Source of the DNA: an uncultured Lewinella sp.
GTDB taxonomy: Bacteria; Bacteroidota; Bacteroidia; Chitinophagales; Saprospiraceae
Direction of reading: 5' to 3'
Length of the DNA: 59,783 nucleotides
Assembly (NCBI GenBank): GCA_964554545.1
Contig: CAZKPE010000003.1
Coordinates: 1 to 59,783 of the forward strand
Shown here: piece after piece, positions 1-59,042 of the stretch
Numbering within the stretch: position 1 is the first letter of the stretch
Layout: every line of letters starts with the position of its first letter
Made by a program: the position numbers and the translations under genes
Notes under the pieces: model-generated
Seen by the model: the letters and a program-made list of their open reading frames with translations, nothing else
Database searches by the model: none
What the model was told of the DNA's origin: nothing

Positions 1-1562
1 GTGTCCTGGAAAAAACCGCTGAAGCGGGTGCTGTTGATCTGGTTTTCCGTCTTCAGGACGCTGAAGAGCCGCACGGCATCCTCGTCGAAGGGCAGGCTGT
101 AGCCGGCCGAGTCCAGCCGCTCCCACTCGTTAATGTAGTCGTCGATGCGCTCGTGTTGCACTTTGCCGCTCCACTGCAGGAAGTGGCTGCGGGAGGTGGT
201 GGCGTCGCCGGTGTTGAGCTCCAGTCCGCCGCGCAGCTCGGCATTGTAGACCTGGATGTTCAGGAAGTTGCGGACGTTCTGCTGTTGCACGCCGGTGCCG
301 ATGATGCTGGTCTGTTGCCCGAAGGTTTCCGAGCCGAGATCGGTGTCGAGGTTGCCGAGGGTGTAGGCGCCGCCGATGCTGATGCCCTCGTCTTCGTCGC
401 TGCGGAAGGCCGAGGTGAGGAACTTGAGGAACAGCGGGTTGGCCGCCCGCTCGGGGATGTAGGTCAGCGAGAGGCCGCCCATCTGGGTGAGGAAGTCGTC
501 CCGCTCCGCCCCCTCGAAGGCGGTGAACAGGCTCAGGGTTTCGAAGAAGCCCCCGAAGGCCGTTTCCCGCTGCACGGGTCGGAAGTTGTAGATGCTGCGG
601 TTGTAATTGCCCAACAGCCCGAGCTGGAGGGTGCGGCTGAAGTCGTAGGTCACGTAGGCCTGGATGTCGTAGAAACTGGGGGTGTACTCGCCCGTGGTTT
701 CCAGGCTGCCGAGGATGTAGCGGGTGTCTTTGTAGCGCACGCCGCCCAGGAAGCGCAGCCGCTGGTAGGCCGAGCCGCCGAGTTGTTTGCTGCCCTCGAT
801 GTGGGCCGAACCGCCGAGCAGACTGGCGTCGAGGCTGGCGCGTAGGCTATCGGGGCGCTTGTACTTGATGTCGAGCACCGAACTGAGCTTGTCGCCGTAG
901 CGGGCCTCGAAGCCCCCCGAGGAGAAGCTCAGGCTGCGCATCAGGCGGGGGTTGGCGAAGGTGAGCCCCTCCTGCTGCCCCTGCCGCACGAGCTGGGGGC
1001 GGTAGATCTCGAAGTCGTTGACGTACACCAGGTTTTCGTCGTAGTTGCCGCCGCGGACGTTGTACTGGCTGGTAAGTTCGCCGCCCGCGCCGCTGCTCAC
1101 GCCGAGGGCGATACTGGGCAGGATGCTCTCCAGGTTGCCGGTGATGGAGGGCAGGAGGCGAAGCTGCTCGGGGTCTTCGCGGATCATGCCGCCCTCCTCG
1201 ATCTTGCTTTCGCGGACGATGACCTCCAGCGCGCTCTCTACGGGTACGAGGCCCACGTCGATCTGTTTGCGGGAGCCTTCGGGCAGGGCGGCCACGTTCA
1301 CGGCGGTTTCCCGGTAGCCGATGCGGCTGAAGACGAGCACGAAGTCCTGGCCGGCGGGCACGGTGGTGACGTAGCGGCCCGTCTGGCTGGTCTCCACGGC
1401 GGTAGTGGCTCCGCGGACGTAGACGGTAGCGAAGTCGATAGGCTGTTCACTGACGCCGTCGGTCACCCGGCCGCTGATGGAGGCCGTTGCGATCTGGGCG
1501 CGGGCGCAGGTGCAAGCCAGGACCAGAAAAACAACGAAGGCACTACGAAGGAGGGGAATCAA
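1..1562 (-). CDS. TonB-dependent receptor with N-terminal carboxypeptidase-like regulatory domain and plug (3' end outside window)
   Basis: Absent from the ORF track because it has no in-window stop. Manual translation from TTG at 1562 gives MIPLLRSAFVVFLVLACTCARAQ...SISGRVTDG...IDFATVYVRG and the plug motif SQYNVRGGNYDENLVYVND...GGFEARYGDKLSSVLDI. Confidence 0.88.
   Translation of the reverse strand, partial: MIPLLRSAFVVFLVLACTCARAQIATASISGRVTDGVSEQPIDFATVYVRGATTAVETSQTGRYVTTVPAGQDFVLVFSRIGYRETAVNVAALPEGSRKQIDVGLVPVESALEVIVRESKIEEGGMIREDPEQLRLLPSITGNLESILPSIALGVSSGAGGELTSQYNVRGGNYDENLVYVNDFEIYRPQLVRQGQQEGLTFANPRLMRSLSFSSGGFEARYGDKLSSVLDIKYKRPDSLRASLDASLLGGSAHIEGSKQLGGSAYQRLRFLGGVRYKDTRYILGSLETTGEYTPSFYDIQAYVTYDFSRTLQLGLLGNYNRSIYNFRPVQRETAFGGFFETLSLFTAFEGAERDDFLTQMGGLSLTYIPERAANPLFLKFLTSAFRSDEDEGISIGGAYTLGNLDTDLGSETFGQQTSIIGTGVQQQNVRNFLNIQVYNAELRGGLELNTGDATTSRSHFLQWSGKVQHERIDDYINEWERLDSAGYSLPFDEDAVRLFSVLKTENQINSTRFSGFFQD
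1495..1516 (-). repeat. Dispersed motif copy CTTGCACCTGCGCCCGCGCCCA
   Basis: Identical over 22 bp to 59021-59042; encodes CTCARAQ in the signal peptide. Confidence 0.85.
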
Positions 1563-1646
1563 GACCGGGGCGATGAGCTAGGGGAACGGTAAAGGTAGGG
1601 CGGGGATTGCCTTGCCGTCGGCTGTGGCTTGCCGCGTCCGCCAGGG

Positions 1647-2219
1647 CTACTCCACCGGCCAGAAGATCAGCCCCAGTACTTCCACTAACTCCCCCGCGTG
1701 GCCGTAGATCCCCCGCAGTTCGCCCCGGTAACCCCCATCGGCGTTCTGAGTGATCAGGGTACGGAAGGTGGTATCGCCGCCCCGCCCGCCGTAGAGGGGG
1801 CTCACGCTACCATCCGAGAAGTGGAACTGCACGGCGTCGATGTACCAGCCGGCCCGCCCGCTGATGCCGATCCACTGCCCGCCTGGTGGTACGGGGTAGG
1901 GGGATGCAAATTCAGCCCCCGCCGGGCGGCCGACGGTATAGACCTGCTCGCGCCCGTCCGCATCGGTGTAGGTGAAGCGTAGGCACTGTACGACCAGGAA
2001 GTCGGCATTCCCCGTGGTGCCGACCTCGATCTGACGCAGGACGGTGCCGGGGGTCAGGAATTCGGCGCGGAAGGCGGGAGATTCGGTGCCCGTCACCCCG
2101 CCGACCGGGGCGGAGTAGTGCAGCTCACCGAGGCGGGCCTTCACGTCGGGAATGGCGGTGGTGGCGCGCTGGCAACCGGCGAGGAGCAGGAGGGAGAGAA
2201 GAATCGGGGCGGTCCGCAT
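1647..2219 (-). CDS. Jacalin-like lectin domain lipoprotein
   Basis: ATG at 2219, lipobox LLAGC, jacalin-like motifs ISGRAGWYIDAVQF and YGGRGG. Confidence 0.7.
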   Translation of the reverse strand: MRTAPILLSLLLLAGCQRATTAIPDVKARLGELHYSAPVGGVTGTESPAFRAEFLTPGTVLRQIEVGTTGNADFLVVQCLRFTYTDADGREQVYTVGRPAGAEFASPYPVPPGGQWIGISGRAGWYIDAVQFHFSDGSVSPLYGGRGGDTTFRTLITQNADGGYRGELRGIYGHAGELVEVLGLIFWPVE

Positions 2220-2313
2220 ACGGCTGAAATTACGGAATGCCCCGGCGCGGCCGATTGCTAACGGGCGGGGCTGATATATTTCCGTACCTTCGCCGTCCCA
2301 CCAAGCTACCCGC

Positions 2314-3120
2314 ATGGCAACTGTATTAAGCTTACTGAACCACAAAGGCGGCGTCGGCAAAACGACCAGCGCCATCAACATCGGAGCCGGGCTTGTTGAG
2401 CTCGGGCAGCGCGTACTGCTCGTCGACCTCGACCCCCAGGCTAACCTGACCCTCAGCCTCGGCATCCCCCGTCAGCCCGTGACGATCTACGAGAGCATGA
2501 TGGGGGAGAGCGACCTGAGCCCCTACGAGATCAAGCCCGGTTTCCACGTCGTCACCTCCAGCCTGGACCTGTCCAGCGCCGAAATGGAACTGGTTAACGA
2601 GGCCGGCCGGGAATTCATCCTGCGGGAGCTCTTCGCCGGGGTGGATGAGGACTACGACTTTATTATCATCGACTGTCCGCCGAGTTTGGGCTTGCTCACG
2701 CTGAATGCGCTGACGAGCAGCCAGCAGGTGATCATCCCGCTGCAGACCGAATTCCTGGCACTGCAGGGGCTGGCCAAGATCAAGCAGGTCATCCAGAAGG
2801 TGAAATTGCGGCTGAATAAGGAGCTGCACATCAGCGGCGTGCTGGCCACCATGTACGACCAGCGGAAGGTACTCAACCGCGACGTGGTGGATACGATCAA
2901 GAAGTACTTCGGACCGCTGGTCTTCGATACCTACATCCGCAGCAACGTAGCCCTGGCCGAGGCCCCCTCCCAGGGGCAGGATATCTTCACCTACAGCAAG
3001 TCGAGCCATGGGGCCAAGGATTACCTGAAGGTGTGTAAGGAGATCCTGGATCGTACCGAGAATCCCCCGCACCTGCGCCCGCGCCCGGAAAGAAAACCCG
3101 CTCCGACACCCGCCAAGTAA
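2314..3120 (+). CDS. ParA/Soj-family ATPase (no adjacent parB)
   Basis: Deviant Walker A KGGVGKTT, plus DLDPQAN, IIDCPP and LAEAPS motifs. Confidence 0.93.
   Translation: MATVLSLLNHKGGVGKTTSAINIGAGLVELGQRVLLVDLDPQANLTLSLGIPRQPVTIYESMMGESDLSPYEIKPGFHVVTSSLDLSSAEMELVNEAGREFILRELFAGVDEDYDFIIIDCPPSLGLLTLNALTSSQQVIIPLQTEFLALQGLAKIKQVIQKVKLRLNKELHISGVLATMYDQRKVLNRDVVDTIKKYFGPLVFDTYIRSNVALAEAPSQGQDIFTYSKSSHGAKDYLKVCKEILDRTENPPHLRPRPERKPAPTPAK
3069..3086 (+). repeat. Dispersed motif copy GCACCTGCGCCCGCGCCC
   Basis: Exact 18-bp core in the parA 3' tail, read as HLRPRP. Confidence 0.85.
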
Positions 3121-3127
3121 GCTCGCC

Positions 3128-3550: not shown

Positions 3551-3611
3551 GGCTAACTTATTCACACGCGGCCCGTTGATTGTAGCGTTGAAACACGCTA
3601 ACTTCCCCTTC

Positions 3612-7290: not shown

Positions 7291-8313
7291 ATGACCAAGA
7301 TTCGCGCCGCCATTACCGGGGTTCAGGGCTATGTACCCGACTACATTCTCACGAATGAAGAGCTCGCCACCATCGTCGATACGAGCGATGAATGGATCAC
7401 CTCCCGGACGGGCATCAGCGAACGCCGCATCCTAAAAGGGGAAGGCAAAGGAACCTCGGTTATGGTCGAGCAGGCGCTGCGTAAGCTGCTGGACAAAACG
7501 GGCACCCACCCCGACGAGGTGGAACTGGTTGTCTGCGCTACCGTAACCGGCGACAGCATCTTCCCGGATACGGCTAATGTAGCCGCTTACAAAGCAGGAA
7601 TACGCAAGGCTTTCGGATTTGACGTGAGTGCAGCCTGTAGCGGATTCCTGTACGCCCTTACCGTTGGCGCGAAATTCATCGAATCCGGCCAGCATAAGAA
7701 GGTAATCGTGGTGGGGGCTGACAAGATGTCCTCCATCATCGATTATACCGACCGCACGACCTGCGTCATCTTCGGGGACGGGAGCGGGGCGGTCCTGCTG
7801 GAGCCGGCAACCGATGGTACCGGCGTGATCGATTACCGCCACTACGGCGATGGTAGCGGCGAGGAATACCTGTACTTGGTGGCCGGCGGCTCCCGTAAAC
7901 CGGCTACGGTGGATACGATCATGGCCCGCGAGCACTTCGTGCGGCAGAACGGGCGGCCAGTCTTCAAGGCAGCAGTGAAGGGGATGTCGGAGGTGGTGGC
8001 CGAAGTGATGCAGCGCAACGGCCTGAAACAGGAGGAGGTCGCCTGGCTGGTCCCCCACCAAGCCAACATCCGCATCATTCAGACGGTCAGTAAGCTGCTC
8101 CACTTCCCGCTGGACAAGGTCATGATCAACATTCATAAGTACGGAAATACGACGGCGGGTACCCTGCCCCTCTGTCTGTGGGACTACGAACCACGCTTAC
8201 GTAAAGGGGACAACCTGATCCTGACGGCATTCGGGGGCGGCTTCACCTGGGGCGCGCTCTACCTGAAGTGGGCCTACGATGGGGCGGGCGGGGACGCAGG
8301 TGCCGACGAATAG
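7291..8313 (+). CDS. fabH: 3-oxoacyl-ACP synthase III
   Basis: Catalytic motifs AACSGF, HQANIRI and GNT; FGGGFTWG. Confidence 0.96.
   Translation: MTKIRAAITGVQGYVPDYILTNEELATIVDTSDEWITSRTGISERRILKGEGKGTSVMVEQALRKLLDKTGTHPDEVELVVCATVTGDSIFPDTANVAAYKAGIRKAFGFDVSAACSGFLYALTVGAKFIESGQHKKVIVVGADKMSSIIDYTDRTTCVIFGDGSGAVLLEPATDGTGVIDYRHYGDGSGEEYLYLVAGGSRKPATVDTIMAREHFVRQNGRPVFKAAVKGMSEVVAEVMQRNGLKQEEVAWLVPHQANIRIIQTVSKLLHFPLDKVMINIHKYGNTTAGTLPLCLWDYEPRLRKGDNLILTAFGGGFTWGALYLKWAYDGAGGDAGADE
8286..8303 (-). repeat. Dispersed motif copy GCACCTGCGTCCCCGCCC (2 mismatches)
   Basis: Lies in the non-conserved fabH 3' tail (GGDAGA). Confidence 0.65.
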
Positions 8314-18105: not shown

Positions 18106-20907
18106 TCACTTCTCCCCCCTAAAATCAAACCACAGCCGCCCCCCCCAGATACTCGGCCCGCCCCGGTGGCCCCGAAATTGGTTCGTCGCCCCGCTCGGAC
18201 TGCCCTTTTCGGCTACTTTGAACTTGGAGCCGATGGGACTGATCGCCTCCATGATCGACAGATTGCCCTCCGGAAAACGGCCGTCGGTGTTATCGTTAGT
18301 GGCTCCCCGGGGCGGGTCCGGCGTGAAGAGATGGAGGTAGTTGCCGGGTGTTGCCGTCAGGATGGTGAAATGCTGCTCTTCGGTTTCCAGCGTAGCCCAG
18401 TAGAGGTTACTGTAATAACCCTTGAATTCGGGGTAGTCCCAGCTTTCGCCCGTCACGGTATTATTGTAGGCCTTTTCGTGGAGCCTGAAATTCACTCCCT
18501 GTAGGCGGTTTTTCCACACGCGGTAGGGGCCGTCGCCGAGGTAGCGTACGCCCTTCACCCGTTCCTCCGGATAATCGAAGGTGATGCCCATGTAGTCGTG
18601 GTTTCCCCTCGGGAAGTAAGCATAGTCAAGCTGCAGCACCCCACTCGGCAGCATCCGGTAAGCCAGGGTATCCAGGGGGCCGGAAAGCACGAATTGAATC
18701 ATCTGAGTATCCCCCTCCTGACGCTGGATTACCTCCTCTACCGTCGCCTCACCGGTGGTCAGTCGCGGGCCGTTGCTCAGCGAGATAGCCCCCTTTCCGT
18801 TGCGAACGGAGCGGATCGTACCATCGGTTTTATTCAGTACGACTTCGACACCAGCGGCCGAAAGGATAAAGGTAGTTTCCGTCTTTTCCAGACTTGGGCG
18901 GCGGGGCGCGGGTGCAAGGTTGTCCACGAAATTGGAAGCAATCCGCTGCGGGGTGGCGATGGGCAAGGACCAGTGCATCACCAGCCTGCCGTGGGGGTCG
19001 AAGGCCCGGAGTTCGAGTGCGTCATGTGACTCCCAATCTTCCGGCAGACTGAGGTCGACATAGGCACTAAGACCCGGCGCTACGGAGGGGAGGTCGACGG
19101 TAGTCTGCAGGGTAGTATCCGCACCCCTGCTCTCCCCCGGCCCGGGCAGGTCGACCAGGGCCATTTCCAGGGTGCACTGATCCAGATCGGTGAAGTGGAA
19201 GCGATTTTCCAATTTCAACCGTCCGTCAAAGCGCGGGGGCAGGCGCTCCCGGTCGATGGCGATGGGCGACCAGATCTCGCGGATGGCGTAGAAGCTGCCC
19301 TCCTTTTCCCGGTAGGGGCCCACGATGCCGTCCGGTGCCTTATTGCCCTGGGTGTCGAGGGTATCGCTCCTGACGACCCCCTCGTCGGCAAAGACCCAAA
19401 GGAAGCCGCCGGCCGCGAGGGGGTTGCCGCGCATTTCCCGCCACCAGTCGGCCAGCCCCGCCCCGTGGCCGCCGTCGTAAAGTCCGTGCAGGAACTCGGT
19501 CGGAAAGAACACCTCCGTCCCGTTGAAGAACGACCCACCGCAGCAGTTGAAGTCGGCGTAGTGGAAGGTGTAGGTATCGTTGATCAGTCCCCAGGGGTGG
19601 ATAACGGTACGATCCTGGGGGTCATAGATGCGGTAATCGCCGAGCAGGGCGTAGTTGTTACCACCTTCGTTACCATTGGCCCAGAGCACCACGCTGGGGT
19701 GGTTTACGTCGCGTACGACCAGTTCCTTGACCAATTTGCGCCCAACGATCGTGTCATACGCATCCTGCCAGCCGGTGAGCTCGTCGATGACCAGGAGGCC
19801 CAGGGAATCACAGACCTCCAGGAAGTGCTTCTCCGGGGGGTAGTGGCTCATGCGCACGGCGTTCATATTCATGTCCTTCATCAGGTTGACGTCCTGGATG
19901 CTGAGTTCCTTACTGGTGGTGCGCCCCGAAGTCGGCCAGGAAGTGTGGCGGTTGACGCCGCGGAACATCACCTTGGTGCCGTTGAGGTAAAAGCCGTCCT
20001 GCGGTCGGAGCTCGAAGGTGCGGAAACCGGTGCGCTCCTTAAATTCATGTATGGGCTTGCCGGCGGTATCCTCTAACAATACGACGACGTCGTAGAGGTG
20101 GGGAAATTCAGGCGACCACGGGTCCACGTCATCGATCGTGCCGGTCAGGATCGTAAGACTGTCCTCTCTTCCGATAGTTTGTACGGGTAGCGTGCCCACT
20201 ACTTGCCCTGACAAGGCTTGCACCTGCGCCCGCGCCCGGACCCCCTCTTGCTGCCCCGCGGTGAATACATGTATGGTGAGCGCCCCATCGGCCCGGGCGT
20301 CGGTGGCTATTCGTTCGATATGCTGCCGGGGTTTGACTTCGAGATAGACGGGGCGGTAGATGCCGCCGTGAACCCAGAAGTCGGCATCCCGCTCGGCTTG
20401 GTTGACTGACTCGTTGCGGGAAACATTATTGACCACCACTTCCAACTCGTTCTCCCCCGGCCGCAGCAGGTCCGTGATGGGGTAGCTAAATTCGTAAAAG
20501 CCGCCCTGGTGGACCGGCCCCGCCGACCGTCCGTTCACCATGACGCGGGCATCGGTCATTACGCCCTCGAAGACGAGGTCGACGTGCTTTTCCGCCCAGT
20601 CGGCCGGTGCCGTGAAGGTGTGACGGTAGGTCGCCGTAGCGTCGGATTCCGGCAATTGCTGACGCCAGCCGGGGCGGTCTTCGCCGTTGGCCTGTCCGTA
20701 GCTGAAGATGCCGTATCCCTCAAACTCCCAGTTACTTGGGACGGCGATTTTACCCCATTCCCCGCTGTTGCGGCCGCGGTCGATGTGGAAGTCCCAGTCG
20801 ACCCGGTGGTCCTTATCGGTGCCGGACAGATACTGCCGCTCGGTAGTCTGAGCGATGAGAGAGGAAAGAGCGAAGAGGAGAAGGGGAACCAGGCTGGTGC
20901 GTAGCAT
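18106..20907 (-). CDS. Glycoside hydrolase family 2 (beta-galactosidase-like), secreted
   Basis: Signal peptide, [25 protein letters not shown], acid/base [13 protein letters not shown] and nucleophile PTEF. Confidence 0.93.
20217..20237 (+). repeat. Dispersed motif copy CTTGCACCTGCGCCCGCGCCC
   Basis: Exact core, antisense within the GH2 gene (RARAQVQ). Confidence 0.85.
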
Positions 20908-31367: not shown

Positions 31368-31440
31368 ACGGCGAAGGTAAAGCGGGCGGCCGCGTCATCA
31401 GGGGAAGGGGCCCCCTGATGTAAGCCAGGTGCAAGCCGGA

Positions 31441-33738
31441 TCAATTCCGGAAAACTCGCACGAAGACGATAAGGAGCAGTACGGCGAACCCCACCCCCAC
31501 CCGCACCCAGAACTGCTGCCGCGTCACGATGGCCGACTGCAAGTGGGCCGGGTTGGCCCGCCCGGGGGTGCCGGGGCCAGCTTCCGCTACCCAGTGGCGG
31601 TGGCGGCTGTTGTCCAGCCCCGGGAGGGCCAGGGCGTAGGTGAATACGGTATCCTCCCGGGGCGGAAGCTCGTAGCGGATCGAATTCACGTAGCTCCCGT
31701 CAGCGGCGTATAGCCCGAGGCGGTCCACTTCCTTATGCAACCCGAAGGGGAGGCCAGCGATGAATTCCGGCACCTCCGGGTAGGTAGCCGCGAACCGCTC
31801 TCCCTCGCGGGATACGACGAGGTAGGAGCCGGGGCGCAGCAGGGTAGGGGGCAGGTGGAAGCGTTCCCCGCTGCCGTCGATCAGGAACCACCCTTCCAGG
31901 TTCACGGCCGGTCCCTCCCGGTGGTACAGTTCGAGCCAGTCACCGGCCACTTCGCTACGGGGACAGACCTCATTGATGATGATCCGGTCCGCCAGCGGAT
32001 GGCGGCTGGGCGCGAAGCGGGCCTCAAGTTCATAGGAACGGTCCGCGCCTAAGTCCTGATCGAATATTGGGCGCTCTTCCTCGGCCCCCTCCCAGCCCGC
32101 GAAACGATAACCTGGCAGAGCCACGGCCTCCAGTCGGATCGGAACGTCAGCGAAATAACGGCCCTCCAGCCCGTCGCTACCGACCTGCAGGTTATCGTTG
32201 ACCACCACGTAGCCGCCCCGGCCCGCCCGGACCGCTACCGCACGGTCTGATCCGGCCCGGAAGTATTCCCGCAGGTGCTCGCGCAGAAAATCCGGCCGGT
32301 ACAGCGCGAAGCGGCGCAGCTGGTCGCAGTGGTAGCGCCAGTGGCCTAGCTGACGATCCCAGCGGGCCTGCTGCCGGGGCATTTCTTCCGCGATGGCTTC
32401 GATGGCCGCGTCAGTGCGTTCCAGGACGGCCTCGGCGCTGAAGTCGGTATGGAGGTAATCGAGGCTGCGGTTGATGAAGTTGCGCCGGTAAGCGGGGTTG
32501 GCCAGTAACTTGCGCTGCAGGAGGGTAGACCAGGGGGGATTCGGCCAGACCGGTCCGGCCGGCTCCGTGAAGAAGGTCAGTGAATTGGTGGTCCACCCCT
32601 GCTGCCGGTGCAGCCCGAAACCCTGGTCCACGTCGTACAGTATCCAGCGGAAACGCTCGTTCGGCCCATTCGGTCGCCAGAAGCGGATGTTGCCGCCGGC
32701 GTCGCGGTTATCGAAGTAGGTCTGGGCGATCTGCAGGCGCTGAAAGTTGTCGACATCCATTCGTTTCTCCACCCAGGCGTAGTGCCGCTGGTCGGCCAGA
32801 TCGTGGCGGCTCACGTAGTCGCGCAGTTCGGTGTAGTCGGCGTCGCTTCCGTGTTTAACGGTCCGTTCGTGCTCGATCAGGCTCAGGGAGTCCTTATCTA
32901 CGTCGTAGCGGTCGGCCAGGAAGCGGGGGTTGATCTTCTCGCGCAGGTGGTAGAGCCCCCAGTATTTTCCGTTGAGGTATACCCGGACGGGGCGGGCGGC
33001 CTGTACGTCCAGCTCCCAGCTCGGGTCTGCGAGTAGCCCGGTCAGGAGGGCGTCGCGGAGGTAGCTGCGCCCCCAGTCCGAGCCCCCGTTGCGGAGGACG
33101 ACGAACTGAAAGCGGTCGCCGGCCCCCTCTCCGAACAGCGGGTAATCAATCCGGCGGTTCCCGTAGCGTTTGCGGCCGGAGAGAGAAAAGGACTTCTGGG
33201 GGTGCACCCGGCTACGGCCGCCGAAAAGACGAAACCCCATGCGGCCGGCGTGCACCGATTTTCCCCCCGGGGTAAAGATCTCTACGTGGACGGGGTGTTC
33301 TGCGTCCGTCCACCAGTTGGCGCCGCGGGCCCCCGTGGTGTCAGAACCGGCTACGAACCAGCCGGACTCCGGGTGAAACAGCCGCCAGGGGTCGATGGCC
33401 ACCGCTACCGTCATCAGCTCCGATGGGGGTTCGCCAATGAGGTAGGTGCCGCCGAATTGTTCGGCCTTTCCGTCAGCACCGTAGCTGACTACCCGCAGCG
33501 TGGAAGAGGCCCGGACCGGAATCGGCCCCCCGGTATAGGGCAGGGAATGGCGGTCCGGCGTCCGTCCGTCCGTGGTATAAAAGATTGCACCTGCCCCGAT
33601 AGCTATCGGGGCGCCCAAAACCTCTACCCGCTGGGGTTCCGCGTAGAAGCCGGGGGAAGGAACAAGGCGCATCCCCTGCTGCCCCGGCAGTTGAGCGGCC
33701 AGAAACACCAACAAAACCGCGGGGAGGGCGTAGCGCAA
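31441..33738 (-). CDS. CotH kinase family protein with lamin-tail domain and C-terminal TM anchor
   Basis: Signal peptide, FYTTDG.TP, YLNGKYWGLYHLREK, RWILYDVD, IIINEV...DWLELY and a C-terminal hydrophobic helix. Confidence 0.85.
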   Translation of the reverse strand: MRYALPAVLLVFLAAQLPGQQGMRLVPSPGFYAEPQRVEVLGAPIAIGAGAIFYTTDGRTPDRHSLPYTGGPIPVRASSTLRVVSYGADGKAEQFGGTYLIGEPPSELMTVAVAIDPWRLFHPESGWFVAGSDTTGARGANWWTDAEHPVHVEIFTPGGKSVHAGRMGFRLFGGRSRVHPQKSFSLSGRKRYGNRRIDYPLFGEGAGDRFQFVVLRNGGSDWGRSYLRDALLTGLLADPSWELDVQAARPVRVYLNGKYWGLYHLREKINPRFLADRYDVDKDSLSLIEHERTVKHGSDADYTELRDYVSRHDLADQRHYAWVEKRMDVDNFQRLQIAQTYFDNRDAGGNIRFWRPNGPNERFRWILYDVDQGFGLHRQQGWTTNSLTFFTEPAGPVWPNPPWSTLLQRKLLANPAYRRNFINRSLDYLHTDFSAEAVLERTDAAIEAIAEEMPRQQARWDRQLGHWRYHCDQLRRFALYRPDFLREHLREYFRAGSDRAVAVRAGRGGYVVVNDNLQVGSDGLEGRYFADVPIRLEAVALPGYRFAGWEGAEEERPIFDQDLGADRSYELEARFAPSRHPLADRIIINEVCPRSEVAGDWLELYHREGPAVNLEGWFLIDGSGERFHLPPTLLRPGSYLVVSREGERFAATYPEVPEFIAGLPFGLHKEVDRLGLYAADGSYVNSIRYELPPREDTVFTYALALPGLDNSRHRHWVAEAGPGTPGRANPAHLQSAIVTRQQFWVRVGVGFAVLLLIVFVRVFRN

Positions 33739-37668: not shown

Positions 37669-37687
37669 TTGCGCGGACGCAGGTGCA
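37669..37687 (-). repeat. Dispersed motif copy TGCACCTGCGTCCGCGCAA
   Basis: Intergenic, about 10 nt upstream of the SDR start and followed by an A-run. Confidence 0.7.
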
Positions 37688-44436: not shown

Positions 44437-45909
44437 CTACCAGGGTAGCCGGCCGGGGTCGAAATAGCGAAATTCCCGGAGGTGGAACACGTTTCTGCGT
44501 AGCTCACTCACGGCATGGCGGTAAGCCACCCTTGCCGTTTCCCCCTCCCCGCGGCTTTTACCCCGCAGCAAATTGATCAGGGCGGATGGGTAGGCACTCT
44601 TATACCCGATACGACCTAGGTACCGGGCCAGGTTATTGATTCCGTAGCCGACGAATTCGGTATGGCCGAGTCGAAGGTGGCACCACAGTTGTAGCAGGCG
44701 CGCGTACACGATCAGGTCGTAGCGCAGGGCGTGGCGTTCGTTGATGATTGGGTACAGGTAATCCAGGGCCAGTTGGGGTAGGTCGTTCATGAGCGCGATT
44801 GCCGCCACTTTATAGTGCAGGACCAGCTGCTTATGGCGATCGACCCCCTCGATCTGCTTTATTTCCTCATTGAGGGCATTCAATTGGGCGGGGGCGCAGG
44901 TGCAATCTTTATTCAGGATCAATTGATTCAGGCGGGCCCGCAGCAGGACGAGCTCGGCGAGCAAGCGACTGTTCCGGTGTTGTCGGGTGGTCGGTGAGGA
45001 TTCGACGAAGGCCCGCAATCGCCGGTGAACCTCCTCGTGTTCCCCCGGGTCATAACGAAAAAAGGAGAGGAGCAGCCGGCGGTCCATCCCCTTGATGTAA
45101 AGTGTCGTATCGAGTTCCCGGAGCCCTTTGCGGCCCTCGATGACTTCCGTCCATTGGCGGGCGTGGACGGCGGCCCGGTCGAGCTGCAGCTGATTGTAGT
45201 GGTACCAGAAACGGCAGCGCTCGTTCAGGATGCGCTCCTGGTAGGTGGCTCCCCGACCGGGTACGTCGTCGAAGTAGTGGTGGTACAGCTGATAGAAGCG
45301 GCGGGCTTCCCCCGGGTTGGCGACGTGCCCGTTTAGGATGAAATAGCGCTGCAGGATCAACTGTAGGTTCGACTGGCGAACCGTGCTGCCCATCACCTCC
45401 TGCCGGCGACGGCTTTCGCCGGTCAGCTCTTCCATGCGGGTGGAGCTGGAACGGGTGATGTGACGGCTCTCGATGACCTTCTCGAAGTCGATGATCAGGA
45501 GGTGGTGAAGATCGAGGTGGTGAGTGATGGCCAGGTCTTTGGCGCGGCCGAGGATCTTCAGGGCGTGCAGGTAGAGGCCGCGGTCGTAAAGGAGGTTGGC
45601 GTAGTCGATCTGTTCGCGTACCTGAACGCCGGGGTCGCGCCGACGGTGCTGAAGCCGCAGGGCATCCAGTATCCGACCGTAGAGGTGGCGTTGCAGATTG
45701 ACTAATTGGGTCGGTCCGGTCAGGCCCAGCAGGCGGGTCAGTCCGGGGTCGTCCAGGCCGCCCCCCGCTGAAAGATGACGGAAGAGGCGGTAGAATTTAT
45801 CCGTTTCCCCCGAGCCCGTCTGGTTCGTGTAGCGGGTGAAGAAGCGTTTTTCGGAGCTATCCAGGCTTTCGACGAGCTCGGTGAGCATTTCTTTTTTGGC
45901 AATGGCCAT
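44437..45909 (-). CDS. Uncharacterised ~490-aa helical protein divergent from susC
   Basis: Long ORF starting LTELVESLDSSEKRFF, with TPR-like LYDRGLYLHALKILGRAK; no signal peptide or TM. Confidence 0.8.
   Translation of the reverse strand: MAIAKKEMLTELVESLDSSEKRFFTRYTNQTGSGETDKFYRLFRHLSAGGGLDDPGLTRLLGLTGPTQLVNLQRHLYGRILDALRLQHRRRDPGVQVREQIDYANLLYDRGLYLHALKILGRAKDLAITHHLDLHHLLIIDFEKVIESRHITRSSSTRMEELTGESRRRQEVMGSTVRQSNLQLILQRYFILNGHVANPGEARRFYQLYHHYFDDVPGRGATYQERILNERCRFWYHYNQLQLDRAAVHARQWTEVIEGRKGLRELDTTLYIKGMDRRLLLSFFRYDPGEHEEVHRRLRAFVESSPTTRQHRNSRLLAELVLLRARLNQLILNKDCTCAPAQLNALNEEIKQIEGVDRHKQLVLHYKVAAIALMNDLPQLALDYLYPIINERHALRYDLIVYARLLQLWCHLRLGHTEFVGYGINNLARYLGRIGYKSAYPSALINLLRGKSRGEGETARVAYRHAVSELRRNVFHLREFRYFDPGRLPW
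44885..44905 (-). repeat. Dispersed motif copy TTGCACCTGCGCCCCCGCCCA (1 mismatch)
   Basis: Read in frame as CTCAPAQ inside a cytoplasmic protein. Confidence 0.75.
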
Positions 45910-46099
45910 CACAAAATCGCTTAGCGGAGTGAGGAATGAGGAGCTGGCTACGGGCTGAAATACCGGTGGTGGGGGAAAGCTAACAAAACGTTAAGCGATC
46001 ACAAAATACGGGCCTTTATGATTTCGCATGCTGCTCTCCATTAATTGACCTTAGGGCAATCGTTCCGAATACCCCTTTTCACTTTGCCATCCACTAGTT

Positions 46100-49306: not shown

Positions 49307-49392
49307 TCGGCAGACGAGCCCTGCGCTTCGCGCTGCGGACTCGGCTGACGACTACCAAGCATCGCGCTGCGGTTTCGGTTGACGACTACCAA
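49304..49392. repeat. REP-like hairpin plus 34-bp tandem duplication between susC and susD
   Basis: Units 49325-49358 and 49359-49392 match at 30/34 positions; imperfect stem TAGTCG...CGACTA (49304-49354); GTAG termini on the minus strand. Confidence 0.7.
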
Positions 49393-49402: not shown

Positions 49403-49421
49403 TGCACCTGCGTACCCGCAA
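49403..49421 (+). repeat. Degenerate dispersed motif copy TGCACCTGCGTACCCGCAA
   Basis: Intergenic, upstream of the susD start and followed by an A-run like the copy at 37669. Confidence 0.55.
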
Positions 49422-49434
49422 AAAAATTTAAACT

Positions 49435-50922
49435 ATGCGACCCTTACTTTTTTCCCTGGTATTCCTACTGATCTTCACGGCCTGCGACGAGGGCTTCGAG
49501 GAGTTGAATGCCAACCCCAACGAGCCGGAGTTGGTACCCCCAGCTACCGTGTTTCCCTTTGCCGTGCGGGAAGCCGTCGACCGCATCCACGGGCACCGGA
49601 CGAGGAACCAGCGGCTGAACCTGGACGGCGGCATGCTGTGGATGCAGTACTTTGCCCGTAACCAATACGTGAACGAGGGTGACACCTACAACCCCGCCGC
49701 GACCCTACGCGGCAACACCTGGGACGGCTTTTTCACCGAGAGCCTCGTCAATCTGCAAACGGTGATCGAGCTGACCGACGAGCCCGAAGACCGCTACTAC
49801 AACCCGAACTACGCGGCGGCGGCCACCATTATGCGGGAGTACGTCTTCAGCATCCTGACCGATACCTGGGGGGCCATCCCCTACGAGCAGGCGCTGAGCG
49901 GTTCGACGGAGGGAAACCTGGCCCCGGCTTATACGCCGCAGCAAGAGGTCTATGCCGGGATGCTGGCCACCCTGAAGGCGGCCGCCGACCAGCTGGACCC
50001 CGCAGGACCGGGAATCGAAAAGGACATCCTCTTCGGGGGGGATATCCTGAAGTGGCAGAAGTTTGCCAACAGTCTGCGGCTGCGCCTGGCCAACCGGCAG
50101 GCGGAGAAAGCATCCGGAGAAAGCGCCGCGGTCTTTGCGGAAATTATGGGAAATCCCGACGCTTACCCGATCGTGACAGCGGAAGAAGAGGGCCTCTACT
50201 TCAACCCCACCAGCCGGCAGACTGACGAGAATAACAACACCTGGCACGAGGTGATGGTCTTCGACAGCCGGGAGGACTGGTCGATCTCCACCACCTTGAT
50301 TGATGCCATGGCGGACGCCGACGGGAATGCCACCGACCCCCGCCTGGAGGTATACGCCATACCCGCTCAGGCCGGTGTCCGGGCCGGCAAATATGCGGGC
50401 GCACCTAACGGACTGCCGGAGGGGGAGGCCGTGGCCTACTTCACCACCGCTAGCCGGCCGGGAAGTTACTTCACCGGGGAAACGACCCCCGTAGCGCTCC
50501 TCACTTACGCCGAGATTGCCTTCATCCTGGCCGAAGCGGCCCTGGAGGGCGACTACACCGGTGGAGCGGGCGCGGCGGATTACCTGGAGATGGCCATTGT
50601 GGCGGACTTTGGGGAGTTCGGTCTGACCCCGCCGGCTGGCTACCTGGAGGGACTATCCGTCGATAAGGAAACCATCATCACCGAAAAGTGGAAGGGGCTT
50701 TTTCCCCAGGGCATAGAAGCCTGGACGGAATACCGCCGGACCGGCTACCCCGTGCTGCCGGCACCTGACCCGCGGGCCGTGATGGAGAACGACGGCCGCA
50801 TCCCGACCCGCTTACGCTATCCGGAAAGCGAATACAGCCTGAACGGGGCCAACGTCAACGCGGCCGTCGGGATGAATGGCGGTCCGGACAATAAGCTGAC
50901 CGACCTGTGGTGGGCGGAATAG
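49435..50922 (+). CDS. SusD/RagB family lipoprotein
   Basis: Lipobox IFTAC, LTDTWGAIPY, WQKFANSLRLR, EAWTEYRRTGYP and RLRYPESE. Confidence 0.95.
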   Translation: MRPLLFSLVFLLIFTACDEGFEELNANPNEPELVPPATVFPFAVREAVDRIHGHRTRNQRLNLDGGMLWMQYFARNQYVNEGDTYNPAATLRGNTWDGFFTESLVNLQTVIELTDEPEDRYYNPNYAAAATIMREYVFSILTDTWGAIPYEQALSGSTEGNLAPAYTPQQEVYAGMLATLKAAADQLDPAGPGIEKDILFGGDILKWQKFANSLRLRLANRQAEKASGESAAVFAEIMGNPDAYPIVTAEEEGLYFNPTSRQTDENNNTWHEVMVFDSREDWSISTTLIDAMADADGNATDPRLEVYAIPAQAGVRAGKYAGAPNGLPEGEAVAYFTTASRPGSYFTGETTPVALLTYAEIAFILAEAALEGDYTGGAGAADYLEMAIVADFGEFGLTPPAGYLEGLSVDKETIITEKWKGLFPQGIEAWTEYRRTGYPVLPAPDPRAVMENDGRIPTRLRYPESEYSLNGANVNAAVGMNGGPDNKLTDLWWAE

Positions 50923-51332: not shown

Positions 51333-51348
51333 CAAATAACACGCTACA

Positions 51349-53977: not shown

Positions 53978-53980
53978 AAA

Positions 53981-54430: not shown

Positions 54431-54438
54431 GAGGGGGG

Positions 54439-54807: not shown

Positions 54808-54830
54808 AGACGGGGCTGGGTTTGCAACAA

Positions 54831-54867
54831 AACGGCCATGCACTGAATCGTTCACTGCATGGCCGTT
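54831..54867 (-). terminator. Intrinsic terminator after ytxH-like gene
   Basis: 12-bp stem AACGGCCATGCA/TGCATGGCCGTT, running into TTTTGTT on the minus strand. Confidence 0.7.
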
Positions 54868-54898
54868 GGTAAATTAAATCGGCGGGACGAAGCAGGAG

Positions 54899-55375: not shown

Positions 55376-55535
55376 GATGCGTGTATTATACGGTTCGATG
55401 ACGCCAATTTGGTCGTCAATTGTAGATCGTTTGCCCGGTACGATTTGTTCACAGCCCATTTTACCTTTGAGCCGGCCAAAATGGTTACCTTGAGCCTTAT
55501 TCTACGCGCGGTCGTCCCCGTTTAACGTCCATATT

Positions 55536-56057
55536 GTGAATTTTTTGTCCAGTAACCTGCGATGTCTCAGAAAGCAGCGGAAGCTATCTCAGCAGCAATT
55601 AGCGGATGACCTGGGGGTGAAACGTAGCAATATCGCCGCTTACGAGACCAAGAACGTGGAACCGCGACTTTCGCTGTTGAAGCGGATGGCGGATTACTTC
55701 GGCGTTCCCTTAGCCAGTTTTATCCTCCGGGATCTGTCGCAGTTGAGCCCCATTCAGCTTCAATCCCTGGATCAGCAGCGTGAAGGGGGGGTCGACGGTT
55801 TGTCGCGACCCTCCGTGGAGGAGATACGACAGATACTAGACAAGCTTCAACGGGCGGTTGATGGCTTCCGCGTTTTTTACGAGTTCAAGAGGAATTCCGG
55901 TGACGAAGCCGCACCCCGGCAGACTGGTGACATCGACAACTTCCTGGTTTTCATTGACCACATTGCCGAGTACCAACGGCAGATCAACGATACACTGAAG
56001 CCTCCGGACGTGCTCACAATGAGTGATGACGACGGCCGGGACGCGCTCGCTGGTTAG
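55536..56057 (+). CDS. XRE-family HTH transcriptional regulator
   Basis: NLRCLRKQRKLSQQQLADDLGVKRSNIAAYE and MADYFGV motifs. Confidence 0.9.
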   Translation: MNFLSSNLRCLRKQRKLSQQQLADDLGVKRSNIAAYETKNVEPRLSLLKRMADYFGVPLASFILRDLSQLSPIQLQSLDQQREGGVDGLSRPSVEEIRQILDKLQRAVDGFRVFYEFKRNSGDEAAPRQTGDIDNFLVFIDHIAEYQRQINDTLKPPDVLTMSDDDGRDALAG

Positions 56058-56058
56058 G

Positions 56059-56592
56059 CTAGCCGATCTCGTCGGCTATACGTTGTAGGCGCAGGGCGAT
56101 CTCATCACTTGCCGGTAGGTTTAGCTGGCGAATCTGGGCGATACTTTTGCGCAGTTCGATTTGCGCCCGCCGTTTGCGCTCCCAGTCCTCTTCCCGTTTG
56201 GCTAGGTTCTTGCGATTTCGTTCAATGACCTGCTCGAGCAGTTCGGGCAGATTGCGCAGGTTCTCCTTGAGCAGATATCCATTGGCTCCGGATAGAACTG
56301 CTTCTGCCACTTTTTCCTCATTGTTCAGGATGCCGGTAATAAAGATGAACGGAGTGCCATCGAGGTGTTCCCGCACATGGATCAGTGCCTCGAGCCCGTT
56401 CATGTCCGGCAAGTTGTAGTCAGATAGAACAATGTCTGGCTGGAAAACCGTCACCTTCTCCTCAAACTCACTTCGATGGCGGGCAACGGCAAAGAGTACA
56501 TTGGGGTTGAACTTGCGGACCTGTCGTTTTACCAATTCCAGGTCGACCGGCATATCCTCGAGAATGAAAACCTTGAAAATTTCGTCGCTCAC
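56059..56592 (-). CDS. Response regulator (REC domain + short coiled coil)
   Basis: ILED, VLSDYNLPDMNG, FITG and YLLK; no DNA-binding domain. Confidence 0.88.
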   Translation of the reverse strand: MSDEIFKVFILEDMPVDLELVKRQVRKFNPNVLFAVARHRSEFEEKVTVFQPDIVLSDYNLPDMNGLEALIHVREHLDGTPFIFITGILNNEEKVAEAVLSGANGYLLKENLRNLPELLEQVIERNRKNLAKREEDWERKRRAQIELRKSIAQIRQLNLPASDEIALRLQRIADEIG

Positions 56593-56618
56593 TGAGGCGG
56601 GGTGTTTTGGGTCAGGAT

Positions 56619-56942
56619 CTAGGAGTGCCGCTCGATTAGCTCGGTGATGGTACGGCCGCCGATGGCCCCCATTACACGATCGATCAACTCGCCATCTTTG
56701 ACGAACAGCAAGCCCGGTGGGTTGGTCACATTGAACACTTTACAGATGCGGGGTGAACGTTCCACGTCAGCCACTCCGAACTGCACTTTGGCGTAACCGC
56801 TGGAGATACTTTCCAGCAGAGTCCGCATGATGATGCCGTGGCCGTCCCAGGAAGAGGTGATCAGCAGTACGGTAAGGCCCGTTCGACCCAGGAGATCGCT
56901 CAGTTTACCGTCCGTTGTTAGTGTCAGATTCTGACTTTGCAT
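56619..56942 (-). CDS. Thioredoxin-fold protein lacking CxxC
   Basis: SSWDGHG in place of WCGPC; ADVER, FNVTNPPGLLFVKDGELIDRVMG. Confidence 0.75.
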   Translation of the reverse strand: MQSQNLTLTTDGKLSDLLGRTGLTVLLITSSWDGHGIIMRTLLESISSGYAKVQFGVADVERSPRICKVFNVTNPPGLLFVKDGELIDRVMGAIGGRTITELIERHS

Positions 56943-57182
56943 CCCTGTGTAAATAGGCAACCCGCCTGGTCAACCGATAGCCTAAATCAATTGGGCGGAT
57001 TGTGCACATAACCGGAGCGAAAGAATCATGTTCGCACAATTCAAGGTTATTGAGCGGGAGGGGGAAGAGGGCCGTGAACAACACCTGGCAGGCTTACTGT
57101 ATTTAATGAATTACTTGCATTGCAGACGGTCTTAGATTGGACGCACTTCCATAGTGGGCTGGTTTTGTGATGTTTAGCTATA

Positions 57183-57197
57183 TGGCATGATGTTTGT
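57183..57197 (+). promoter_or_regulatory. Putative sigma54 (-24/-12) promoter of the ECF sigma gene
   Basis: TGGCATGATGTTTGT has exact GG-N10-G spacing. Confidence 0.55.
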
Positions 57198-57250
57198 TGT
57201 CATACATTCCGAGTGCAGATCACCTTCACATACACTTTTACGTACCACGC

Positions 57251-57763
57251 ATGACCAACCAGCAGTTTATGTCCGAAATGGACCGCCTTGAAAACATTCT
57301 TTTTTCTTTCGCGCTCAGACTTACCCGCAACTACGAAGACGCCCAGGACCTCATGCAGGAAACCATTTTCCGAGCGTACAAGCACCGCGATAAATTCGCA
57401 ATGGGAACCAATTTTAAGAGTTGGTCCTCCACCATCATGCGGAACACCTACATCAACCGCTACCGGAAGATGAAAAGTCGCAAGCACGTCAACGAGCCGG
57501 TGGAAAGTTTTCTCTTTGCCGTCGAGAACAAGAGCGCCATTGCCAACGGGGGGGAGATGAACATGCGCATGGAGGAGTTGGAAGACAAGCTGCGGCAGAT
57601 CAGCGAGATCTACAGCGTACCCTTTCTGATGTTCTACCGAGGCTACGAGTACAAGGAGATTGCCAGCTACCTCAACATTCCGATCGGGACGGTTAAGAGC
57701 CGCATCTTTCTGGCGCGGAAAAAACTGAAGGCGCTGATCGGGGAACGTCCCGCGGCGGTCTAG
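57251..57763 (+). CDS. ECF RNA polymerase sigma factor
   Basis: ATG at 57251; DAQDLMQET, NFKSW..TIMRN and YKEIA.YLNIPIGTVKSRIFLARKKL. Confidence 0.93.
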   Translation: MTNQQFMSEMDRLENILFSFALRLTRNYEDAQDLMQETIFRAYKHRDKFAMGTNFKSWSSTIMRNTYINRYRKMKSRKHVNEPVESFLFAVENKSAIANGGEMNMRMEELEDKLRQISEIYSVPFLMFYRGYEYKEIASYLNIPIGTVKSRIFLARKKLKALIGERPAAV

Positions 57764-57961
57764 TAACCCATTCCCGCTTCGGCGGTAAGACAACTTTAAG
57801 AAGGGCGGATTTGTAAGTAACGGGGAGTCGGTCGTACTTTCGTGCCGCCCCCTGTGTCCGCACTCACCTTGCACGGCTTGCGGATACATCGCCGTTACCG
57901 GTCCCTAAGCAAACCAACCTAGGCTTACGGTAGTGGCTATTTCTGGATTAAGCCCTCCTAG

Positions 57962-58945
57962 ATGAGACGCGAAAAGTTTGTTTTCAATCAGCGCACCCTT
58001 CAATACGAGCGGGTGGTGGAGCCTCTCAGTTTTACCCTGCTACGCGCTTTCGGGTTCTCTTGTGCCGCTTTACTTGCCGGGGTCATACTCATGGCTTTCG
58101 TGCATCGCTTCTTTCCCAGCCCGAGCGAACGCATGCTGATGCAGGAGCTGGAAATCGCACGGGCGGAAAACGCTGCGCTGGCCGCTCAATACGACGAGTT
58201 GTCGGAAGTTGTCGGTCACCTCCACAACAGAAGCAACAATACGGTACGACTAGCCCTGCGTATGGATCCGGTAGACGATGATGTCTTCCGCGGCGGCGTG
58301 GGTGGTCACGAAGCATACGATGAACTTCGTGATTTGCCGAATGTAGGTAGTTCGATGGCTGACCTCCGGGAAAAAGCCGATCGCCTGCGGCACCAGATTG
58401 ATTTGCACAGCCGATCAATCGACGAGGTTGCCGAAATGGCCCTACGCAAAGAGGACATGCTCGCCTCCATCCCGAGCATCAAGCCCGTACGGGGGGATCA
58501 GTTCGCCCGGAAGATGGAAAACCTTTCCGGTTTCGGTCACCGCATCCATCCCGTACTTGGCGTTAAACGGATGCACTACGGTATCGACTTCAACAGTCCG
58601 CGGGGTACCGAGATTCAGGCTACCGGCAAGGGGCGCGTCGTTTTCGCCGGGTACAACCCCACTTACGGCAACTGCGTTGTGATCGATCATGGCTACGGCT
58701 TCCGGTCACGTTACGCCCACATGAGCAACGTCGAGGTGAAGCGTGGGCAGCAGGTCGACCGCGGGCACCTACTCGGGCTGGTCGGCAGTACGGGGCTTTC
58801 CACCGGCGACCATCTGCATTATGAAATTGAAAAGGACGGCGTGAAGGTCGATCCGATCCAGTACTGCTACGACGGCCTGACCCCGGAAGAATACCAGGAA
58901 TTGGTCGAAGCCGCCCGTCAGGTGAACATGTCGTTCGACGAATAG
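57962..58945 (+). CDS. M23 family peptidoglycan endopeptidase
   Basis: N-terminal TM and coiled coil; IPSIKP, MHYGID, YAHM and HLHYE. Confidence 0.92.
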   Translation: MRREKFVFNQRTLQYERVVEPLSFTLLRAFGFSCAALLAGVILMAFVHRFFPSPSERMLMQELEIARAENAALAAQYDELSEVVGHLHNRSNNTVRLALRMDPVDDDVFRGGVGGHEAYDELRDLPNVGSSMADLREKADRLRHQIDLHSRSIDEVAEMALRKEDMLASIPSIKPVRGDQFARKMENLSGFGHRIHPVLGVKRMHYGIDFNSPRGTEIQATGKGRVVFAGYNPTYGNCVVIDHGYGFRSRYAHMSNVEVKRGQQVDRGHLLGLVGSTGLSTGDHLHYEIEKDGVKVDPIQYCYDGLTPEEYQELVEAARQVNMSFDE

Positions 58946-58971
58946 ACCGTCACTTAGTCAACTAATTTGGA

Positions 58972-59011
58972 AAGGGTAGCTGTCCGCGGATGGCTGCCCT
59001 TCTCTCGTTTT
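58972..59011 (+). terminator. Intrinsic terminator after the M23 gene
   Basis: Stem AAGGGTAGCTGTCC/GGATGGCTGCCCTT with G-U pairs, followed by CTCTCGTTTT. Confidence 0.6.
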
Positions 59012-59020
59012 CCGATCCCC

Positions 59021-59042
59021 CTTGCACCTGCGCCCGCGCCCA
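59021..59042 (+). repeat. Dispersed motif copy CTTGCACCTGCGCCCGCGCCCA
   Basis: Intergenic, upstream of the rpsF promoter; identical to the reverse complement of 1495-1516. Confidence 0.85.

Follow-up and report, generated by a model that had tools for sequence, protein, structure and literature searches.

Sites in the window

The DNA we analysed, hereafter the window, is a stretch of 59,783 nt (contig CAZKPE010000003.1, positions 1 to 59,783, assembly GCA_964554545.1) from an uncultured Lewinella sp. It carries dispersed copies of a long, non-palindromic word with a variable middle, whose general spelling is GCACCYGCG-N4-6-CGC(CC) and whose length is 18-30 nt. Seven copies of the 18-mer described in an earlier note on this DNA occur with at most three mismatches, compared to 0.31 expected, a number that was matched by none of 100 shuffles. 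The four exact copies and those with one, two and three mismatches are located where that note had placed them, and its most divergent variant, with five mismatches, and its five peptide readings were found as described. Its list of copies thus stands, but three further sites (18896-18915, 31384-31432 and 33587-33616) had been overlooked. A comparison with Rfam gave no matches in the window.

Several sites lie within genes. The first copy of form A (GCACCYGCG-NCCS-CGCCC) is located on the minus strand at 1496..1513, in the signal peptide (read as CTCARAQ) of the gene at 3-1562. The copy at 3069..3086 (+) is read as HLRPRP in the C-terminal tail of a ParA-family gene, where the site has been gained across the genus through substitutions in register. 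At 8286..8303 (-) a form A copy with the S=C spelling and two mismatches is antisense to the final codons (GGDAGA) of the gene at 7291-8313. The gene at 18106-20907 harbors two sites: a copy of form B (GCACCYGCG-CNCCGY-CGCCC, 20 bp with a 6-nt spacer) in sense orientation at 18896..18915 (-), and a form A copy in antisense orientation at 20220..20237 (+; RARAQVQ). A form A copy with one mismatch is in sense orientation at 44886..44903 (-), within the gene at 44437-45912 (CTCAPAQ). Outside of genes, form A is found between divergent genes at 37669..37686 (-), with three mismatches and the ending CGCAAAA, and at 59024..59041 (+), 120 bp upstream of a gene at 59162 whose product we take, from its sequence, to be similar to ribosomal protein S6. 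The weak site with five mismatches, at 49404..49421 (+), also ends in CGCAAAA and precedes the gene at 49435. Just 5' of this site, at 49307-49374, are two direct repeats of 34 nt that are 71% alike. Gene names given here without a family search are tentative.

Two sites contain hairpins. The form C site at 33587..33616 (+) consists of GCACCT, a perfect palindrome of 20 nt (33593-33612; predicted hairpin -9.6 kcal/mol) and GCCC, and related strains are 12 letters shorter across a stretch that starts inside this site. At 31384..31432 (-; start computed from lengths) the left half and the CGCCC tail are split by a hairpin with a 9-bp stem. This arrangement has three copies in the source genome, and the orthologous site in the related genome G062 is a plain form B.

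Over-representation of the word and origin of its copies

The source genome (G000; 4.97 Mb in 776 contigs, 88.7% complete) contains 1,162 sites of all forms, one per 4.3 kb. Genes were predicted with a hexamer model derived from the genome itself, and start positions are approximate. Form A is present in 632 copies with at most one mismatch and form B in 349, compared to 4 and 0 copies of the respective reversed-pattern controls. The commonest spelling, GCACCTGCGTCCGCGCCC, occurs 168 times, whereas a Markov model predicts about 0.001 copies per 18-mer; of the copies of the earlier note's 18-mer, 43 are exact, 260 have one mismatch and 257 have two, and the word heads the rankings of 9-mers and 10-mers. 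The over-representation of the motif in this genome is real. The 5' flank is weak, with T-rich patches near -1, -8, -15 and -21 that are roughly in helical phase and extend out to -22, and the 3' flank is C-rich. The G-rich strand of the word includes GCAGGTGC, which has six of its eight letters as in Chi. Forms A and B fold no better than shuffled sequence; only forms C and D (described below) are hairpins. Arrays of 7-nt units (AGTAGGA, TACCGCC) are also frequent in the source genome and in the samples from G042, G041 and G010, with a spelling specific to the species.

Coding DNA holds 643 of the 981 form A and B copies (66%), in all six frames and with 326 in sense and 317 in antisense orientation. 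Resampling of synonymous codons (five rounds) reduced the exact coding copies from 441 to 2-8. The use of six frames together with this resampling rules out a codon or peptide artefact, and the earlier suggestion that selection acts on the DNA is borne out: the results support selection or drive that targets DNA rather than protein. The earlier note's remark that CTCxRAQ is common in signal peptides also agrees with the data: among the 128 copies read in that frame, 74 fall within the first 40 codons. Intergenic copies are preferentially oriented toward the next gene start (229 vs 90).

The copies do not share flanks, with the exception of about 12 duplicated or paralogous pairs. In comparisons with orthologues that do not have the site, the length was unchanged in 75 of 107 cases and differed by +6 or +7 residues in five, and local identity at the site positions was 0.36-0.43, compared to 0.60-0.69 for the whole protein. 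The ParA-family gene illustrates how sites arise: 10 of 30 genomes have the site at the same position and others have stepwise intermediates, 10 other genomes have in its place a site about 310 bp beyond it on the same strand, and one genome has weak matches at both positions. Between G000 and G062 (627 kb aligned) 76 sites are common and 61 are not, some of the latter being swaps of form. The unshared flanks, the substitutions in register and the absence of inverted pairs at a fixed distance rule out that the main forms originated as insertions of miniature inverted-repeat transposable elements (MITEs), and, with six frames in use, the copies are neither the ends of such elements nor confined to one frame.

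Sites are spaced separately on each strand

Spacing was compared to a null model that preserves the gene context and orientation of each copy. Only 31 same-strand pairs are closer than 2 kb, compared to 191 under the null, whereas the number of opposite-strand pairs is as expected (199 vs 189), with the exception of facing pairs closer than 250 bp. The ratio of observed to null same-strand pairs rises with distance, from about 0.1 below 1 kb to 0.3 between 1.5 and 3 kb and 0.5 between 3 and 4 kb, and reaches 0.85-0.95 farther out. Forms A and B exclude each other on the same strand (9 vs 88), and because of this mutual exclusion we consider them equivalent. Neighbouring sites in the source genome are on alternating strands in 546 cases and on the same strand in 166, and the gaps on each strand have a mean of 8.6 kb and a coefficient of variation of 0.55. 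An artefact of gene layout is ruled out by the context-preserving null. Alternating neighbours also outnumber same-strand ones in G062 (118/37), G041 (97/56), G017 (33/8) and G051 (12/6); in the small samples from G060 (3/6) and G049 (3/4) alternation is absent.

The known signals used as controls behave differently. For uptake signal sequences (USS; 495 sites in 40 non-overlapping loci, 654 kb) and DNA uptake sequences (DUS; 283 sites in 25 prophage loci) the ratios of opposite- to same-strand pairs are 200/192 and 117/100, with depletion only below about 500 bp, and Chi in Escherichia coli (132 sites in 500 kb) has no kilobase same-strand exclusion. On the complete chromosome G041 the sites show no strand switch and no clustering, with 51 on the plus and 49 on the minus strand among the 100 of 154 sites listed, which reach to 3.05 of 4.58 Mb.

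A one-sided footprint downstream of the word

The composition of fourfold-degenerate sites was measured by signed distance from the word, with all sites fitted jointly. Downstream of the word the motif strand is G-rich regardless of the direction of the gene, and silent-site GC content increases from 0.82 to about 0.845; upstream the profile is nearly flat. Overall the footprint covers the region from 0.3 to 4 kb downstream, with G-C near +0.06. In the joint fit G-C lies between +0.05 and +0.07 from 0.5 to 3 kb downstream, drops to +0.03 from 3 to 4 kb and is about 0 past 4.5 kb, and G+C is +0.03 downstream and back to background by 5-6 kb (bootstrap standard deviations about 0.006 and 0.003, respectively). 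The effects of tracts on the two strands are additive and independent. Each of the forms A to D shows the footprint, as do intergenic sites and sites in either orientation within genes; 396 control words consisting of the left half only do not. T on the motif strand decreases downstream rather than increasing. No second short word was found behind the skew, and the footprint is diffuse. The tract fades across 3-5 kb without a sharp end, at a fixed distance rather than halfway to the next facing site, and tracts cover about 45% of each strand. The gradual fade speaks against headfuls of constant length, as packaged by gene transfer agents, for whose genes no search was made.

Subtracting the upstream from the downstream skew gives +0.040 in G000, +0.076 +/- 0.012 in G041 and +0.020 +/- 0.010 in G062, and the different word used by G017 (see below) gives +0.029 +/- 0.011. 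The USS and Chi controls have no one-sided footprint; the DUS control is noisy, with a trend of opposite sign. Silent divergence between G000 and G062 is 0.49-0.50 near sites and 0.53-0.56 more than 3 kb away, a difference that cannot be separated from the one in GC content. Across 40 samples (20 kb each) taken from the G041 chromosome, the local skew is up to 0.18 in size and follows no replichore pattern, and dnaA is present in 45 of 47 genus genomes. Balanced orientation and the presence of dnaA rule out a replichore signal and a loss of dnaA as explanations. The architecture signal that the earlier note had considered is therefore not supported in a replichore-oriented form, as neither a skew between origin and terminus nor a strand switch is observed.

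Hairpin-carrying forms and Y1 genes

The palindrome CCGATAGCTATCGG has 81 copies in the source genome, 51 of which follow the left half of the word and replace the spacer (form C); at 17 further sites it stands in place of the left half (form D), and in G041 it is found at a third position within the word. Neighbours of form C among forms A and B within 3 kb are on the same strand in 3 cases and on the opposite strand in 21. The 16-nt hairpin can thus stand in for part of the word, with exclusion and footprint retained. Form C occurs in seven of 47 genomes, spelled as the local word, and orthologous sites interchange between B and C. The acceptance of an 8-bp stem at several places would be explained most simply by a reader of the word that binds single-stranded DNA and leaves the stem looped out. 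An alternative explanation is that the hairpin inserts into a nicked site, which we consider possible.

Genes for Y1 transposases similar to RAYT (the transposases associated with repetitive extragenic palindromic sequences, REP) are present in 46 of 47 genomes. Two of the four in the source genome lie between back-to-back sites. Of 29 further Y1 loci, 17 are less than 1.5 kb from a site, although the distance varies, and 12 are not. The hypothesis that the RAYT-like protein is the reader is unsupported. The Y1 genes at C390:1946-2804, C424:46-1087 and C66:1-1035 of the source genome are located between or beside back-to-back sites, and two of these three carry inverted repeats or hairpin arrays. 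Across the genus, nearby sites are directed away from Y1 genes in 17 cases and not in 6.

Distribution and dialects

The lineage that carries the word is Neolewinella. Of 121 matches in the sequence collection, the 80 listed either carry the name Neolewinella or Lewinella in their titles or come from bins whose names stop at family or a higher rank. GCACCYGCG-N4-6-CGC occurs in 170-1,590 copies in 36 of the 47 genus genomes, always balanced between strands, and at background level in 11. The Bacteroidota lineage proposed in the earlier note is this genus. In other genera of the family, the 10-mer core reaches at most 70 copies in any of 248 genomes, whereas three genus members have 364-1,240; in other families of the order, form A matches were found in none of 16 genomes.

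Nine of the 11 genomes with background levels use different words, as judged from 20-200 kb each. These dialects are GCTACTTTG-N1-2-AGYC in G017, ACCTGCGGAAGT in G009, G051, G052 and G053, CTTGCCCCTGC in G021, TTGCTCCTGC in G049, and in G058 and G060 a 50-nt hairpin element that ends in GGRCACGCCC. The density of the six dialects counted, 0.17-0.26 per kb, is similar to that of the main word. The word is almost gone from the other two genomes, G001 and G020 (28-30 copies), whereas the other two members of their clade, G059 and G010, have 172 and 366; this natural loss could point to the reader. At some sites in G009, G042 and G017, close inverted pairs lie beside A/T runs, similar to the DUS pairs that form terminators; other sites in the loci of these genomes are back to back around hairpin repeats, 150-250 bp apart.

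Some regions of the source genome are free of sites: the 49.6-kb contig C5 (1-49649), C28 (1-24439), C31 (838-21740) and windows of low GC content. C28 has 16 proteins in common with motif-bearing viral contigs, mainly of a temperate phage, yet it has no sites in 24 kb; the temperate phage contig itself has about nine sites in 44.6 kb. From their open reading frames (ORFs), C5 and C31 appear mobile or phage-like. C47 (20,176 bp) is site-free as well and may be a contaminating contig; the start of one of its ORFs resembles what we take to be a prepilin-type protein of another phylum.

Candidate machinery

AddA- and AddB-like genes were found in the source genome. The predicted model of the AddB-like protein (predicted local distance difference test score 89) has as its top matches in a fold search the AddB chains of AddAB crystal structures (E-value 1e-23); a comparison of its sequence with solved structures gave no match, and the assignment is that of the fold search. 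The protein is 42-65% identical across the eight relatives compared. ComEC, DprA and ComEA-like genes are present too, and MutS, MutL, RecA and ComM were recognized by signature match only. Two more fusions of helicase and nuclease are encoded at C181:1335-4811 and C30:22797-25748, the second of which is conserved across the genus; either could be the reader. A cluster of cas6, cas1, cas2 and cas4-like genes is located at C27:20819-23528, as judged from ORFs and a PD-(D/E)XK match.

Nine of the 47 genomes, exactly the nine with other dialects, encode a DUF5689 lipoprotein downstream of a barrel gene; the lipoprotein was not found in the remaining 38 genus genomes, and a BLAST search for DUF5689 and its barrel partner gave no match in the incomplete source genome. 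The absence probably reflects one loss in one clade. DUF5689 is the family of a protein essential for transformation in Riemerella (PMC8459023). The restriction of the lipoprotein to these nine genomes and the lack of a match to the pair in the source genome, weaken the case for classical DNA uptake.

Comparison with known signals

The word differs in tested features from DUS and USS, Chi, REP, HIP1 and the FtsK-orienting polar sequences (KOPS). Sequence-specific tags of self DNA are established in two bacterial families, the Neisseriaceae (DUS) and the Pasteurellaceae (USS). Similar to these, the word has about 1,000 copies, equal numbers on the two strands, two thirds of them in coding DNA at tolerant positions, and a strong core with a weak phased flank; it is also missing from phage-like DNA (the temperate phage mentioned above carries it), and dialects are likewise known for DUS (PMC3630211). 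However, the Neolewinella word is three times sparser, its sites are tiled separately on each strand up to 4 kb, its footprint is one-sided, and no Riemerella-type uptake pair turned up in the clade. PMC1939737 cites an even spacing for uptake sequences; its available text contains neither tiling per strand nor a one-sided footprint, and the same holds for the available parts of PMC7811141, PMC2397512, PMC6343036, PMC3733652, PMC6006769, PMC8459023, PMC8956659 and PMC3375284. The earlier suggestion of an uptake sequence of the DUS or USS kind is therefore not supported as it was stated.

Chi of E. coli (GCTGGTGG) is non-palindromic, polar and over-represented like the word, and has a similar density of one per 4-5 kb, with 1,008 copies in the genome (PMC1939737); it is read on single-stranded DNA, according to a title cited in the same source. 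The cognate helicase-nuclease is also encoded here, as suggested by the predicted AddB fold. However, Chi is oriented with replication (99 vs 33, or 75%, in the 500-kb control), whereas the Neolewinella word is not; Chi lacks the same-strand exclusion and the footprint; and known Chi sites have 5-8 nt, whereas the Neolewinella word has 18-30 nt, a variable spacer and hairpin inserts. A literature search combining AddAB, Bacteroidetes and Chi found no such site by title or abstract.

REP sequences with their RAYT (TnpA-Y1) transposases (PMC3733652, PMC6006769) share with this system hairpin forms with a short unpaired tail and the Y1 genes. However, the main forms of the Neolewinella word are non-palindromic, mostly intragenic and arise by substitution, and a REPtron layout is not found. 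HIP1 of cyanobacteria is likewise written into genes in many frames; it has no polarity. It is a short palindrome (PMC1939737), whereas the Neolewinella word is long and polar. Other dispersed chromosome signals differ in their arrangement. KOPS, the architecture imparting sequences (AIMS), matS and parS are read by DNA-binding proteins or translocases, and the Neolewinella word has neither the switch in orientation between origin and terminus nor the clustering of signals of this type, as seen in the first 3.05 Mb of G041. Searches of the literature, mostly open-access and without supplements, found no account of the word or the palindrome. The word fails some of the tested features of each known class and yet leaves a one-sided mark, which suggests that an unknown enzyme acts there often. 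Overall, the first interpretation, a dispersed signal for DNA uptake or chromosome architecture, is partly supported.

What the word may do

The word is polar, its effect has a limited range, the two strands are independent, and its spelling comes in dialects. A tentative explanation, which we favor while giving it somewhat less than an even chance, is that the word is a polar self-tag for homologous recombination with related DNA and marks the start of a single-stranded stretch of 3-4 kb. Under this explanation, the word would be read on unwound or single-stranded DNA, one strand would be handled differently for 3-4 kb, and the complementary G-rich downstream strand would be the invading donor strand. 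A donor C opposite a recipient C would escape mismatch repair, which would push the motif strand to G; C-C mismatches evade mismatch repair (PMC8956659). Conversion would raise the GC content near the site. A linear donor fragment would need one correctly oriented site per end, so that little would be gained from another site with the same orientation less than about 4 kb away; this would result in tiling per strand and no replichore skew. Transformation tracts have a mean of 2.3 kb, near the length of the footprint, and marker classes are described in the same source (PMC3375284). AddAB, which is present and fast-evolving, would be the first candidate for the reader, and a factor of the ComEC/DprA pathway the second. 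The polarity of the word agrees with the geometry of Chi. The chances are about even that the word represents an undescribed class of signal: long, hairpin-tolerant, polar words, tiled independently on the two strands, that direct strand-specific recombination or repair over about 4 kb. That estimate extends jointly to two further properties of the class, namely that local skew is set in place of replichore skew and that the dialects act as a barrier to gene flow.

Several observations weigh against a recombination tag. The AddB-like gene is more widespread (89 of 150 family genomes) than this particular word, which occurs in a single genus, and a hairpin is not expected to pass the tunnel that scans for Chi. 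Chi in E. coli has neither exclusion nor footprint, which indicates that true Chi function alone does not yield the pattern. Intergenic DNA shows the increase in GC but not the G-C skew; upstream G-C is also slightly positive (+0.015 to +0.02); and the motif model correlates with local skew at r = 0.33 in 4-kb windows, a partial explanation only. The G-C footprint is not seen in G042 and G022 (-0.047 +/- 0.028, seven loci), and in G009, where gene calls are poor, the value for its dialect is not significant (+0.017 +/- 0.026). Among weak sites, which are too few, no direction of shadowing could be demonstrated. Finally, the leading and lagging strands of E. coli differ at silent sites by about 0.04 each way, and the footprint skew is as large; a footprint of this size would require very frequent recombination and may be better suited to a repair process that operates once per cell cycle.

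The size of the footprint favors the main rival, a loading or nicking site for strand-specific repair within the cell, from which the motif strand would be renewed or protected in each cycle over the next 3-4 kb downstream; a strand signal for mismatch repair, nick translation and a lesion-scanning translocase are variants of this idea. We consider it a serious but distinctly less probable explanation. It fits the additive and independent strands, the missing replichore skew, the lower silent divergence near sites and the MutS and MutL signatures, and as it needs no uptake pore it also fits the missing DUF5689 pair. However, it leaves the fast change of the word between species unexplained, only about 45% of each strand lies within a tract, and the trend in divergence is confounded with GC content. 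The poorly conserved protein positions, the dialects, the inverted pairs in some species, the gaps in phage-like DNA, the ComEC, DprA and ComEA-like genes, and a coding share similar to that of USS (66% vs 65%; PMC2817400) would all be expected of a DNA uptake sequence with polar entry, where uptake begins at the word and ComEC always imports the same strand. We nevertheless regard this as unlikely: USS and DUS contigs have no kilobase exclusion and USS has no one-sided footprint, facing pairs would be expected to compete and yet are undepleted beyond 500 bp, and the distribution of DUF5689 and its partner described above argues against it.

The remaining explanations appear less probable still. 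The orientation of intergenic copies to gene starts, the phased T-rich 5' flank and the transcript-like length of the tract could indicate a promoter-like or polymerase-loading site with pervasive transcription of both strands, the footprint being due to mutation and repair linked to transcription. We think this improbable, given the equal numbers of sense and antisense copies in genes, the C-rich 3' flank, the fall of T on the motif strand and the tolerance of hairpins; a TAnnTTTG element at a fixed distance is absent, which rules out a housekeeping promoter element. We hold it to be slightly more improbable again that the word is a selfish REP-like repeat, or the target of one, spread by the Y1 transposase. 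Most palindrome copies lie inside the word (51 of 81 in form C and 17 in form D, with other positions in G041), the dialect of G058 and G060 is a hairpin element, and two of the four Y1 genes in the source genome sit between back-to-back sites; however, most coding copies arose without a change in length, flanks are unshared, 12 of the 29 Y1 loci are siteless within 1.5 kb, and neither exclusion nor footprint is explained. Least probable of all, in our estimate, is a priming or fork-restart signal on a chromosome replicated from dispersed starts. The G041 samples have no skew at the scale of replichores and the motif strand is G-rich downstream like a leading strand, but dnaA is nearly always present, the tract ends at a fixed distance instead of midway to the facing site, and replication skew alone would not increase GC.

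Whichever enzyme reads the word, the footprint predicts the direction and the range of its action in advance, named strains carry the word, and the dialects represent natural swaps. A role in directing repair would make the word a new strand signal. If it is a gate for recombination, it would constitute a species barrier and offer a genetic handle in seaweed-degrading Bacteroidota.

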